Below, piece by piece: positions 863 to 60,239 of a stretch of DNA of 64,000 nucleotides (positions within the stretch are counted from its first letter, which is position 1; each line of letters begins with the position of its first letter). The DNA comes from a virus: the IMG/VR virus record IMGVR_UViG_3300035181_001974; one strand, given 5' to 3'. The position numbers and the translations under genes are program-made. A model generated the notes under the pieces. That model saw only the letters and a list, made by a program, of their open reading frames with translations, searched no databases and was not told where the DNA came from.

Positions 863-1105
863 ATGAAGCTGTCATTGTCGAGGCTGCGCAGCCTGATCCG
901 CGAGGCGATCTCTGCCTCTGAGGACTACATGAAAAAGGAGCGTATTCGCGAGGACTTGCAGGACCGCGTCATCGAGGCAGTGATGAAGGGTGACATCAAG
1001 GATGAAAAAGACCTTGTTGAATACTTCAAGACCGTCGATATGGCCGTCAAGGCACTGAAGATGATCCCTTATGATGTCTTCGTGAAATTGGCAAAGCAGA
1101 AGTAG
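863..1105 (+). CDS. small protein with N-terminal leader-family motif (MKLSLSRLRSLIREAI)
   Basis: Internal ATG of ORF 848..1105; N-terminus matches the L-R-x-L-I-R-E-x-I family. Confidence 0.45.
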   Translation: MKLSLSRLRSLIREAISASEDYMKKERIREDLQDRVIEAVMKGDIKDEKDLVEYFKTVDMAVKALKMIPYDVFVKLAKQK

Positions 1106-1140
1106 TGAACCTCTGCCTACTCACAAGGTAGACTCGAGGC

Positions 1141-1503
1141 ATGGAACGGGAACGCACCAAGCCAGGCGATCCTGAGTTCGGCGTTTACGCCGAGGTCGTC
1201 AAGTGGAACAACACCATTTTGTGCCTCCCAACCTGGGAAGAGATCCTGGAGTACGAGTACGTCCGTCAACGTGGTGAAATCAACATGTTGACCGAGGACG
1301 TGCAGCGTTACGCGTTCGATCATGGACTGTATGCGTTGGTCACCTGGTGGCAGCGCTGCAAGGAAGCTCGGATTTCGCCCTGGAAGATGTACGAAGCTGG
1401 CATAGTGCAGTACGAGGCCGAAAATGGCTCCAGGGAATCCTGGATCACTGACGAAATGCGAGAGAATGTGCTGCTCCGCGAGCTTGAGCGTAAGGAACAG
1501 TAA
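1141..1503 (+). CDS. hypothetical protein
   Basis: 120-aa ORF. Confidence 0.45.
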   Translation: MERERTKPGDPEFGVYAEVVKWNNTILCLPTWEEILEYEYVRQRGEINMLTEDVQRYAFDHGLYALVTWWQRCKEARISPWKMYEAGIVQYEAENGSRESWITDEMRENVLLRELERKEQ

Positions 1504-1572
1504 GCCGCCGACGATCTTCGTAAGGTTCGGCGTAAACTTAATGCTCCGCGTAAGCAAAACAAGAAGTGATAA

Positions 1573-2076
1573 TCAACGCCAGACACGCTTGCGATCGCGG
1601 TACGTGCTCGGCGAACGATAATCCTCACGCCACGAGCTCGTCTTGCCACTGGGCTTGTGCGTCGTCATTCCACCGCTGCGGTAGTAGGGATCACCTGAGT
1701 TTGCGTCTGGGTCATTTCCGTGAATGAACCTCGACGACAAGTCGGCATACTCCGCCGCCAATGATTCCGCCTCTGTAAGAGTAGTCTGACTGTGGAAAAA
1801 GTCATAGAGGCTGTGTGCCCTTGCGCTAGTCCAAGATTGACCCTTGGCCTTGACAAAGGTGAAGAAAAACTGATTGTAACCATTGCGAGTCGCCCGCATC
1901 TTCGCAAGTGCGGCATCATCAATGCCGACTTCATTGCAAGCTTCCACAACTGATTTCAATGAGGCAGCGCCCTGATTCTTCAAAGCCTCGAGGCGTTCCC
2001 AGTCACTCTCGGCGTCTGAGACTTCATCAATTGTCTCACGAATGATATTGCGCAACTGTTTAGCGGTAAGCTTCAT
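1573..2076 (-). CDS. leader-family protein (MKLTAKQLRNIIRETI...), function unknown
   Basis: Internal Met of ORF 1573..2223; N-terminal motif shared with six other proteins. Confidence 0.5.
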   Translation of the reverse strand: MKLTAKQLRNIIRETIDEVSDAESDWERLEALKNQGAASLKSVVEACNEVGIDDAALAKMRATRNGYNQFFFTFVKAKGQSWTSARAHSLYDFFHSQTTLTEAESLAAEYADLSSRFIHGNDPDANSGDPYYRSGGMTTHKPSGKTSSWREDYRSPSTYRDRKRVWR

Positions 2077-2261
2077 GCGAAGTAAGTATTCCGCGCTGGT
2101 GCAAACCATGACCCTAACGTGGTACTCATAGAACATGAACATCCGCACCCGCTCTCGGGGCTCTTCGTCATCCGAGGCGCTCATCGTCGCCTGCATCATT
2201 GACGGCGTGGCGAAGGGCTGCAATGATCACAATTCGCAAAGAACGAGTCAGGAGAAAATCA

Positions 2262-2615
2262 ATGAAGAACAAACGGGGACACGCTCTCGTCGAGCTCATG
2301 ATCTTGGTCGCCGTGGTCGCCATCGTCCTCGCGATTATCGTTGCGATGGTCGGCAGGGGCTGCACTGACGTCACTGGCATGGATCACAAGAAAGCGGTCA
2401 ACGAGGCCGGCAAGTGGGGCCAAGAGATGGGCCTCGACGTCAAGGGCGTCTCATGTGTCAACGTCGATTCCAACGTTGACGGGTACGTTTCCTGTTCGCT
2501 GAGCACGGCGGGCAAGGACGGTACGATCTCAATCGTGCCCATCGAATGTGCAGCCTCGCTGACCATTAACTCGGGCTGCCGCGTGGCTCGCGTTATCCCG
2601 GTGGGAGGCCGTTGA
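2262..2615 (+). CDS. type IV pilin / pseudopilin-like protein (prepilin N-terminus)
   Basis: MKNKRG-HALVELMILVAVVAIVLAII is a classic prepilin leader with G/E cleavage-methylation motif; AGGAG SD 8 nt upstream; Cys pairs in the C-terminal domain. Confidence 0.6.
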   Translation: MKNKRGHALVELMILVAVVAIVLAIIVAMVGRGCTDVTGMDHKKAVNEAGKWGQEMGLDVKGVSCVNVDSNVDGYVSCSLSTAGKDGTISIVPIECAASLTINSGCRVARVIPVGGR

Positions 2616-2694
2616 TGTACGACATCGAAAATTGCTACTACACGGTCAACAATGCTCGCAAGGACGTGGCGTGTATGAACTGTCCGGTGAAGTG

Positions 2695-58294: not shown

Positions 58295-58342
58295 TGTACG
58301 ATGCTCTCATGGACGGAGTGGAGAGGAAAGAGAGGAACTGTG

Positions 58343-58777
58343 ATGGCGTCAGTTGAACTCGAGACTGCTCGCGTTCGAAAGTTGGTCGCTGACCTCGTCA
58401 AGAGGACGTGCAACAACTATATCCTCGGTCCTGACAAGGCGTTCAACGTGGGCGCCATCCAGAGCGCCGTAAATTCGACGCTGCACAACCTCGTCACCGG
58501 TGGCACCATCAACAAATTCAAGATCGAATCTGTCAGGGCGGGTCGCGTGCCGGCCCTACGCGAGGTCAACGACCTAGAGCTGGGCGCTGCGCCCGGCGAC
58601 CCAGTCTTGGACAAATTGGGAAACATCAAGGCATTGATCGTCTCCAACGACGGTCGAGGTAACGGCGTCATCTTTGAATCGCATCCTGCAGAATCAGGTG
58701 AGATCCACGTGAAGTTCAGCGTGCAACCGCCGATGCCCCCGTGGTGGATCAACATCGATGTTCGAGTTCCAGGCTGA
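58343..58777 (+). CDS. hypothetical protein
   Basis: SD AGAGGAA before the ATG. Confidence 0.45.
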   Translation: MASVELETARVRKLVADLVKRTCNNYILGPDKAFNVGAIQSAVNSTLHNLVTGGTINKFKIESVRAGRVPALREVNDLELGAAPGDPVLDKLGNIKALIVSNDGRGNGVIFESHPAESGEIHVKFSVQPPMPPWWINIDVRVPG

Positions 58778-58796
58778 CGTCGGGATACTTCATTAA

Positions 58797-59237
58797 GTGA
58801 GCGATCCAATCTCCCGAGAGCGGGCGCTGTTGATCGGCTTTTCCACGGTCGTCTTCGGCATCGTCACGTTGATGCGCAAGGTTGCGCTGAATCGTCTGCG
58901 CCCTCTGCAATTCGAGGCCATCTCGGGAATCATCCACGCAGCATTGATCCCGTTGTATCTAGCCCTGCTCCAACAGAATCTCGTCCAACACAATGACTGG
59001 GACGCTCGCGGGATGTTGTGGTCGATCGCGGCGGTCTGCTTGAACATCGTGGGCTCCATCGCCTTCATGTATGCCCTGCAGATTCGCAACGACGTGGGGC
59101 TCGTCAGCGCATTGGGCTCGGCGTCACCCATTATCACCTTGATGTTGTCGGCGTTGTTCCTGGGCGAGCAACCATCATTGAAGTCAGTGATTGGCATCGG
59201 CCTGGTCCTCATCGGTGTAATGCTGGCCTCGCGTTAG
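58797..59237 (+). CDS. EamA/DMT-superfamily small membrane transporter
   Basis: Four TM segments; C-terminal LSALFLGEQPSLKSVIGIGLVLIGVMLAS is the EamA signature. Confidence 0.5.
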   Translation: MSDPISRERALLIGFSTVVFGIVTLMRKVALNRLRPLQFEAISGIIHAALIPLYLALLQQNLVQHNDWDARGMLWSIAAVCLNIVGSIAFMYALQIRNDVGLVSALGSASPIITLMLSALFLGEQPSLKSVIGIGLVLIGVMLASR

Positions 59238-59448
59238 ATACGATGAGACATGCTCGACAAGAAACTTCCCGGATGATACCAACACGTACGCGGCCACTTA
59301 CGTCCTAGACATGGGCGTCACAGAATCGGGTGAGACGTTGCTGGTCGAGGCCAACGATATCCCACGTCGGGTGCTATGGTCTAGCGTTGTTAGTGTACTC
59401 TCGGTTTCTCGAGGCACGTTGGGCAGAACTGACTCGATAGTTACTTGC

Positions 59449-59874
59449 ATGGCATCGACGTTTTCCGGCATTCGCCAGATCATTCGTGAGGCGCTCAACC
59501 AGGAGGCCGTTCCGCCCGGCAAGTGGGCCGCCAACAGCGGTGAACCCGCGGATGAAGAGGACCTCGAGCGCCTCGGTGAGGTCGATGAGGAAGAATCGGG
59601 TCAGCTCGATCCCGGTCGACACGAGGCCGAGTTCTACCGTGAGCGTGGCCTTAAGGCCATGTCAGTTGCCCAGGGTTATGCCTCGCGGTCCGATTACCTC
59701 CACGCGGACAACACCTTCATGCGTGCCTACGGATACTTCAACAAGGCCTCCACGTTGTTCGCTAAGTTGGGCGACAACAAGTCAGCCAATGACTGCGACG
59801 AACGGGCCATCGAGGCCGAGCAGTCGGCCTTCAAGCATCGCTCTGCCGCTCGCCGTGAAGGGGCACGGCGATGA
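59449..59874 (+). CDS. leader-family protein (MASTFSGIRQIIREAL...)
   Basis: Internal Met of ORF 59311..59874 gives the N-terminal family motif. Confidence 0.4.
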   Translation: MASTFSGIRQIIREALNQEAVPPGKWAANSGEPADEEDLERLGEVDEEESGQLDPGRHEAEFYRERGLKAMSVAQGYASRSDYLHADNTFMRAYGYFNKASTLFAKLGDNKSANDCDERAIEAEQSAFKHRSAARREGARR

Positions 59875-60239
59875 GGATCAGGCTTGGCGAACTCCGTCGC
59901 ATCATCCGTGGCGTCCTGCTTCGCGAGTTCGGCGGACCCACCGGTGCCTCGGGCACCGATCCGACCAAACCCGACGGGTTCTATCCATACGAAATTGAGC
60001 GTGGCGCTGACATCCACGGATTTTGGTACAAGTCGCCTGGTCGACCCATGGGCGGCGACGGCGACCCATTTCGACCCGATGATGCGGCCGTCTACATCGG
60101 CCAGAAGCCCCCGTCCGATAACGCGGTCAACACGCCGGGCGAGGACGCGCCTGACGGGATGCCTGCCGATGAACTCACGGGCAAAGAAGGTACTGAAGGC
60201 GAAGCAGAAACGCCCGAGGGGCAAGCACCGCCTAAGTAG
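59871..60239 (+). CDS. leader-family protein (MRIRLGELRRIIRGVL...) with Gly/Pro/acidic tail
   Basis: N-terminal family motif. Confidence 0.5.
   Translation: MRIRLGELRRIIRGVLLREFGGPTGASGTDPTKPDGFYPYEIERGADIHGFWYKSPGRPMGGDGDPFRPDDAAVYIGQKPPSDNAVNTPGEDAPDGMPADELTGKEGTEGEAETPEGQAPPK

Follow-up and report, generated by a model that had tools for sequence, protein, structure and literature searches.

A 64,000-nucleotide stretch of DNA from IMG/VR virus record IMGVR_UViG_3300035181_001974, referred to here over its whole length as the window, derives from an uncultivated huge phage and raises a simple question: why should at least seven of its proteins, otherwise unrelated, all begin with the same short peptide? 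This leader spans 14-19 residues with the consensus MKIT..QLRRIIRE, and it is a real, highly non-random and clade-wide feature. The reading that we favour, with confidence that is roughly balanced and by analogy with bacteriophage T4, is that it may be a capsid-targeting propeptide, a functional counterpart in this clade of the T4 capsid-targeting sequence (CTS), possibly cut after I-R-E. Much safer than capsid targeting is the broader conclusion that the leader has been appended to its proteins and that a single partner, common to all, recognises it.

The seven open reading frames (ORFs) that a previous sequence-only reading of the window had singled out all exist and translate as written, beginning M-[KR]-[IL]-x-x-x-x-[LI]-R-x-[IL]-I-R-[E/G/T] (Table 1). 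The regular expression [LIVMF]R.[LIVM]IR[EGTS] has seven six-frame matches in the window, all of them no more than 8 residues from an ORF start, and an 18-position matrix likewise returns seven window matches at 13 bits or above, each on an ATG or GTG. With the same matrix, Markov-simulated windows yielded a mean of 0.015 matches (at most 1), and 1.63 Mb of unrelated phage loci yielded three. Furthermore, an independent hidden Markov model (HMM), made from the N-termini of a single family of kinase-like proteins, places the same seven on top, with scores of 28 to 7.9 bits.

Conservation of the leader lies at the level of protein, as had been proposed. Mean nucleotide identity over the 48 nt of the leader is 0.52, the same codon is used at 53 of 132 identical residues (40%), and the arginines at positions 9 and 13 are coded by both CGN and AGG. 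In the leader matrix R9, I12, R13 and E14 are near-invariant, with R rather than K and I rather than L, a conservation that is inflated by the matrix having been made from profile-selected leaders; position 14 is nevertheless Glu in 60 of 79 members of the kinase family, which was collected through its domain and not through its leader. The leader helix is amphipathic and cationic, with a helical hydrophobic moment of 1.2-2.1, and the near-invariance of these four residues appears stronger than amphipathicity alone would need. I-R-E itself is found in five of the seven window members, and the remaining two have an L-I-E or L-R-E, itself a short motif, 4-5 residues further on. The downstream parts are unrelated, as first described: no pair of tails falls below a blastp E of 0.01 past residue 20, and Pfam and PHROGs gave nothing significant on any of the window leader proteins. 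Against PDB sequences the leader profile gave chance matches only. Two familiar N-terminal structures were considered and rejected, a Tat or Sec signal, as there is no hydrophobic core after RR, and the N-terminus of a ribbon-helix-helix protein, as the strand and helix that would precede it are absent; the 'LIREAL' motif in the ribbon-helix-helix fold belongs to helix B.

The leader extends well beyond the window. A word-indexed search had given only nine candidates, and an exhaustive profile search of 1.84 billion representative proteins (E<=1e-3) identified 104 cluster representatives that carry it, of which 79 start with the leader and about 10 more have mis-called starts. The best copy is internal in 24 of the 104, and in 22 of those 24 it is still Met-initiated; a single one of the 104 is an unrelated cellular repeat protein. 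The tails of the representatives fall into at least 32 unrelated clusters, the largest of which comprises 33 of 76, and every tail family of the window keeps its own leader. Together with the occurrence of the kinase-like domain elsewhere without a leader, these observations support the leader as an appended module and not as part of one homologous domain, and the search of related genomes that had been suggested for the motif thus finds it throughout the clade. Density is about one leader per 8 kb in the window clade and several per 20 kb in related contigs; one such contig (L011) has 12 leader genes within 15 kb, among them an AAA_33 P-loop kinase and a protein with a weak GDSL-like hydrolase match, and many other leader proteins are acidic proteins of 55-100 residues. 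The leader is absent from about 60 loci of unrelated phages. A tblastn search of GenBank phages with the 20-residue consensus leader gave no match, by a method too insensitive for this purpose, and Pfam and PHROGs gave no head-protein match on ten large leader-bearing representatives.

Several occurrences depart from the simple arrangement. Proteins with more than one leader are known from metagenomes (P0107, P0109, P0113, P0124, P0142, P0144, P0147, P0170, P0176 and P0180); they look like fused tandem leader genes, in an arrangement kept across several 50%-identity clusters. In the 10 kb upstream of the window (L177), two genes at 4957-6342 and 7839-8957 encode proteins of 461 and 372 residues with leader-like cores away from the N-terminus, MPTIIQKKIPEVLRHIIRQMLVE and MKRLKEHQVLREYVRTVLKE. 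Lastly, P0132, an apparently cellular, membrane-anchored protein of 1146 residues from a 30-kb ENA contig, contains about ten repeats of the type LTSDELRDLIRQEL / LTSDDLRSIIREEL with acidic linkers between them.

The protein that bears most directly on function is the one encoded at 21270-22139. An AlphaFold model (pLDDT 88.8) shows residues 5-16 as a separate free helix, with a low-confidence linker at residues 14-18, and Foldseek of the body returns protein kinases as top matches at E ~1e-4, with low TM-scores of 0.3-0.4; as modelled, the body is a protein-kinase-like fold, and K53, E76, D145, N153 and D166 are invariant in the family. Among 100 homologues, 79 have a strict leader core and most others a degenerate one, so that about 95 keep the leader; three or four, possibly truncated, show none. 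Distant homologues of the domain occur without the leader inside proteins of 900-2500 residues that also hold ADPrib_exo_Tox, WGR or InPase domains. In GenBank phages, distant homologues of this effector carry the annotation ADP-ribosyltransferase. Large fusions of this kind have been described as polyvalent proteins (Iyer et al. 2017); their predicted fate is packaging into the capsid followed by injection, and a distinctive kinase group is found among them (PMC5512222). The window proteins resemble them in the kinds of effector domain (kinase, ADP-ribosyltransferase, InPase), in predicted virion transport and in the homology of the 21270-22139 domain, and differ in that the polyvalent domains are fused in one giant polypeptide, whereas the effectors of the window clade are encoded one by one, each behind a short leader of its own. 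In a T4-like contig of 214 kb (L034/L097), which holds a T4-type portal, a Peptidase_S77 (60 bits), a T4_CASP scaffold, gp23 and TATAAATA promoters, a member of the kinase family starts MKSFKSYLME and its neighbouring gene starts MISFKQFLTE. Members of a single cargo family, the kinase-like one, can thus bear a T4-type tag, bear the MKIT..LRRIIRE tag or form part of a polyvalent protein, and this is the strongest argument for regarding the leader as a head-targeting tag.

The internal proteins of T4 are highly diverse and have nothing in common but a short CTS of 10 to 20 residues, through which they are loaded onto the scaffolding core and which gp21 cuts off; targeting depends on residues 4 and 7, processing on residues 8 and 10 (PMC3012670; PMC9026906; PMC5694885). 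The T4 CTS is MKTYQEFIAE (PMC8442874), and other T4 propeptides are MAKINELLRE in gp24, MELITELFDE in Alt and MLKEQLIAE in gp22. The likeness to the T4 CTS and propeptides (IPI-III, Alt, gp24, gp22, gp67 and gp68) is one of design. In both cases a short, helical, amphipathic N-terminal peptide is the sole common part of the proteins, enzymes that modify the host and small acidic or basic proteins are among the cargo, and the T4 propeptides end in hydrophobic-hydrophobic-x-Glu (FIAE, LLRE, LFDE, LIAE), as the leader mostly does in IIRE. The small acidic leader proteins also recall T4 gp67, a prohead core protein of 80 residues in which a helical N-terminus is followed by an acidic tail. The leader differs from the T4 CTS in being longer and strongly cationic, and in standing on far more genes, spread over the genome and sometimes in two or three copies. 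Shared leaders of other huge phages all end in hydrophobic-x-Glu: 11 genes at 8222-18600 of L033, one of them for a NUDIX-like protein, start MKL[YFS]x[IL][LI][FY]E, with homologous tails in 4 of 55 pairs, and four genes of LR756500 (L009, 28300-31670) start MKYIKEYEEFILE. In the phiKZ-like giant phages, SPN3US gp53 and gp54 are ejection or inner-body proteins with common N-termini (the first 15 residues are identical, MANFVKSKLARESVE) and Glu-ending protease motifs (PMC5694885); these propeptides differ in their A/S/G-x-E motif, in their length, mostly above 100 residues, and in being found on paralogues and not on many unrelated families.

From these parallels a sequence of events can be proposed. 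Within the prohead core or scaffold, as it assembles, a partner shared by all leader proteins would be bound by the leader helix (residues ~5-16), so that these proteins are built into the head; a prohead protease of the T4 gp21 type (Peptidase_S77) would then remove the leader after I-R-E or after the next hydrophobic-x-E, and the mature cargo would leave the head together with the DNA and be ejected into the host cell. Among this cargo would be the kinase-like enzyme, the P-loop kinase, probable hydrolases and many small acidic proteins. A T4-type head machinery in the window clade is plausible, given that two small ORFs of the window end in gp23-like segments and that in LR756501, whose major-vault-protein homologue (MVP) is 40% identical to that of the window, the gene for an S77-like protease lies 6 kb away from that for MVP. 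The earlier suggestion of a capsid-targeting sequence, with an I-R-E triplet resembling the L/I-x-E motif cut by T4-type prohead proteases, is supported by analogy only, through the conserved I12, R13 and E14 and through the leaders of similar build that T4-related phages place on the same cargo family. By sequence the leader does not belong to the T4 CTS family, and it fits best as a further form of the capsid-targeting principle.

Several observations weigh against capsid targeting. On the leader matrix the N-termini of the T4 CTS, gp24, Alt, gp22 and gp67 score -21 to -50 bits, that is, they show no sequence similarity to the leader. A prohead protease, a scaffold and a full major capsid gene were not found in the window, in the 10 kb upstream or in related loci of the clade, where a search of all clade loci with T4 and L097 head proteins returned gp23 fragments only, the genome itself being at least 309 kb. 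The leader was likewise found in none of 160 IMG/VR loci, 80 around gp23 homologues and 80 around S77 homologues, and the window leader genes are scattered among host-take-over-like genes (IF1, chaperonin) and do not lie beside head genes. Glu14 is missing in two of the seven window members, and hydrophobic-x-Glu is common in acidic helical N-termini, so that the 'cleavage site' of the leader carries little information. Furthermore, 13 representatives have two or three in-frame leaders, each beginning with Met, which a pure N-terminal tag does not predict. The missing head genes of the clade, the dissimilarity to T4 tags, the two members lacking Glu14 and the multi-leader proteins mean that packaging and cleavage are steps that we infer.

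The alternative that survives best, which we consider unlikely while granting it real weight, is that the leader serves as a general helix for docking to, or assembly with, a different common partner, such as the inner membrane, the chaperonin, an AAA+ protein or a bundle of its own kind, and is neither removed nor related to the capsid. Its amphipathic and cationic character would suit such a role, although near-invariant residues of the kind seen at R9, I12, R13 and E14 are rare in membrane-binding helices. Proteins with two or three leaders would be multivalent. Genes for Cpn60, AAA and AAA_5 proteins are present in the window, and an AAA gene adjoins the conserved leader-gene pair in the related locus L001, but this AAA and chaperonin neighbourhood of leader genes is not conserved. 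A parallel is offered by the encapsulation peptides of bacterial microcompartments (BMC), PduP MNTSELETLIRTILSEQL and PduD MEINEKLLRQIIEDVL, in which an N-terminal amphipathic helix of about 18 residues and a poorly conserved linker are likewise found on unrelated enzymes and dock them to a protein shell. PduD aligns in register with the leader (L8 R9 x I11 I12 .. V15 L16) at +6.4 bits, a score below threshold; BMC encapsulation peptides differ in being uncleaved and in tolerating far more sequence variation, and no BMC shell family (BMC-H / BMC-P) was found among 29 window ORFs scanned or in the precomputed annotations of related loci. A docking helix also leaves unexplained the T4-type CTS on the same cargo family and the fusion of that family into polyvalent proteins.

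A more specific partner, also raised in the sequence-only reading, is the vault-like shell of the window MVP, for which the leader would be a cargo-loading peptide in a compartment inside the infected cell. This is improbable, and we attach about as little weight to its fuller version, in which the phage would assemble a vault-like organelle inside its bacterial host and the leader would steer tagged enzymes and small acidic proteins into it by the dozen. The window protein does have MVP_shoulder, Vault and Vault_3 domains, the leader gene at 25687 lies about 5 kb from it, and leader genes occur within 10 kb in four of seven loci with an MVP 64-69% identical. However, co-occurrence of leader and MVP is confined to this close clade: in phages with an MVP 40-43% identical, about 180 kb around MVP (L009, L010, L187-L192) contain no leader, as against some one per 8 kb in the window clade, and the idea of docking to a vault shell accordingly finds no support. 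The genes directly beside MVP lack the leader, which is moreover abundant in contigs where no MVP was seen (L011, L022, L029), and known vault cargo binds via a folded INT domain and not through an N-terminal helix.

Conservation of the leader might instead serve expression, as a 5' coding element or nascent peptide that tunes leaderless mRNAs, or might reflect a DNA cassette for recombination. The starting point of this view is an upstream element, ATA[CG]TTA or CTACTTA, that ends 4-6 nt (typically 5) before the starts of leader genes, or 4-9 nt if the genes at 54268 and 55663 are included. TA[CG]TTA stands 4-7 nt before the start of six of eight leader genes of this lineage, and the element-bearing genes have no Shine-Dalgarno sequence. 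ATASTTAS occurs six times in the window against 0.82 expected, and of 22 occurrences of ATAnnTA seven lie 5-8 nt before a start codon, before four of eight leader genes as against three of 97 other genes. The element looks like a promoter of the -10 type that marks leader genes as a co-regulated class; its distance of 5-6 nt from the start codon would imply transcripts with little or no 5' leader, and the phage does encode an IF1-like factor. A role of the peptide itself in expression is nonetheless very improbable. The codon freedom described above, including the alternation of CGN and AGG for Arg, argues against it, and the element is kept by close relatives and not by more distant ones. In relatives such as L011 and L022 the peptide follows a ribosome-binding site of the ordinary GGAG type, and the element is missing. 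A known RNA element at the leader sites was rejected, as no Rfam family matches there.

That the leader proteins are fast-diverging paralogues of one family, with the leader as its best-conserved helix, is the least probable explanation of all, for although several small members share more than the leader (e.g., VPPGRW..GEPAD.EDLERLG) and a single tail cluster accounts for 33 representatives, the unrelated tail clusters range from disordered acidic peptides to the kinase fold and the P-loop kinase, and other phages have the kinase domain with no leader attached.

The leader also bears on the gene models of the window. Some details of the seven members needed correction: 1573..2076 and 21270..22139 had to be placed on the minus strand, 25687 is a GTG, and 59449 is an internal ATG of ORF 59311..59874. 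The starts of the longest ORFs, or those set by gene callers, for 1573-2199(-), 59311-59874(+) and 36875-37282(+) lie 20-46 codons upstream of the leader Met, and the leader and the upstream element indicate, from sequence features, that the true starts are at 2076, 59449 and 36935. At the first of these, gene callers extend the protein to 203-208 residues, where motif and element favour 2076; the protein also has a weak 'Lysozyme_like' hint (E 0.03). The second is backed by an identical 141-residue gene call (P0104) and by the ATAGTTAC element just upstream. The ATG at 59871 overlaps the stop of the preceding gene (ATGA), and this pair is conserved in L001 and L003. At its 3' end, 20463-20741(+) overlaps with the 5' part of the IF1-like gene at 20569-20892(+), the two being read in different frames. 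Gene callers omit the overlapping leader gene, and the overlap is kept in the relative L013 (11204-11473(-) and 11029-11295(-)), whose kinase-like protein is 48% identical to that of the window. Beyond the seven, a weaker copy had been proposed at 35796..36038(-), VIKRIRDLIRSLRGG; with 1.7 bits on the HMM, inside the noise, its membership is not supported. The better additional candidate is probably 36935..37282, the eighth-best HMM match at 5.4 bits, with a CTACTTA element ending 5 nt before its ATG.

The surrounding sequence has a GC content of 53-64% and encodes a Cpn60 chaperonin, a GH25 lysozyme and AAA and AAA_5 ATPases, in addition to the IF1-like factor and three tRNAs. ARAGORN reports two adjacent tRNA-Tyr(GTA), at 63782-63865(+) and 63890-63979(+), of which the second alone passes the threshold for an Rfam tRNA. 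Proteins identical to those of the window are found on contigs as long as 309 kb, and DNA near-identical to it was not found among GenBank phages. The window MVP is 40-42% identical to the MVPs of LR756500 (462 kb) and LR756501 (735 kb), both 'uncultured phage' genomes; MVPs at 64-69% identity occur in seven IMG/VR contigs, and those at 40-43% in other huge phages, these two included. The C-termini of the three gp23-like ORFs of Table 1 correspond to residues ~95-139 and 247-286 of gp23 and, in a gp24-like stretch, to 201-223; Pfam Gp23 matches at 30 and 34 bits. All are preceded by unrelated N-terminal parts of about 65 residues, and the fragments are not collinear with gp23; comparable ones occur in the relatives L180 and L181. 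The piece at 95-139 covers the part of T4 gp23 that is called the Gol peptide.

Table 1. Leader genes, upstream elements and other features of the window. A slash separates the leader from the residues that follow it.
Feature	Position	Strand	Remarks
Leader protein, 80 aa	863..1105	+	MKLSLSRLRSLIRE/AI; 30.8 bits; leader coded at 863-910; helical tail, no family match
Leader protein, 167 aa	1573..2076	-	MKLTAKQLRNIIRE/TI; 37.3 bits; orphan outside this phage
Leader protein, 92 aa	20463..20741	+	38.5 bits; family P0138/P0153/P0200
Leader protein, 289 aa	21270..22139	-	MKIKVKDLRRTIRE/AL, then protein-kinase-like domain (predicted)
Leader protein, 104 aa	25687..26001	+	GTG start; (M)RIKLGELRHIIRTILIE/TGGG; 27.3 bits; family P0137/P0152/P0196
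Leader protein, 141 aa	59449..59874	+	MASTFSGIRQIIRE/AL, then VPPGKWAANSGEPADEEDLERLGE and acidic tail; first of conserved leader-gene pair
Leader protein, 122 aa	59871..60239	+	MRIRLGELRRIIRGVLLRE/FGG; 36.3 bits; second of leader-gene pair
Probable divergent short-form member	36935..37282	+	MSAALLKEFIKE/TLDLL (MSAALLKEFIKETL); internal ATG of ORF 36875-37282
Possible divergent member	9428..9757	+	MRLLEEYVRSVLVE; resembles kinase-family variants MRRLLKEYIRMLLAE and MKNLLREYIRSFLIE; score not above noise
ATACTTAC element	851..858	+	ends 4 nt before ATG at 863
Like element before leader gene	2082-2089	-	
Like element before leader gene	20451-20458	+	
Like element before leader gene	25676-25682	+	
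Like element before leader gene	36923-36929	+	
Like element before leader gene	59437-59444	+	
Like element before gene 54268	54256-54263	+	no leader on the protein
Like element before gene 55663	55648-55654	+	no leader on the protein
MVP homologue	30710-33289	-	859 aa; MVP_shoulder (3e-28), Vault, Vault_3 and Band_7 matches
ADP-ribosylglycohydrolase gene	11843-12757	+	Pfam annotation; same window as kinase-like 21270-22139
gp23-like small ORF	26755-27114	-	C-terminus is a T4-type major capsid protein fragment
gp23-like small ORF	27111-27401	-	C-terminus is a T4-type major capsid protein fragment
gp23-like small ORF	27577-27912	-	C-terminus is a T4-type major capsid protein fragment

Due to its very low false-positive rate (3 in 1.63 Mb), the leader matrix is usable now as an annotation rule, and it also corrects the start codons at 2076 and 59449. 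Should the capsid-targeting reading prove true, a 16-residue motif would allow the repertoire of packaged and injected proteins of an uncultivated huge-phage clade to be read straight from sequence. This repertoire would run to dozens of proteins per genome and exceed 30 families, hardly any of them of known function, and host take-over and anti-defence factors would likely be frequent in it. Foreign proteins could in practice be brought into such capsids by means of the tag. The T4 strategy of a single short tag on many cargoes would then be seen greatly expanded, and the lineage-specific versions of the tag (MKIT..LRRIIRE, MKLYxILFE, MKYIKEYEEFILE and MKSFKSYLME) would be expected to co-evolve with the scaffold and protease of each phage.

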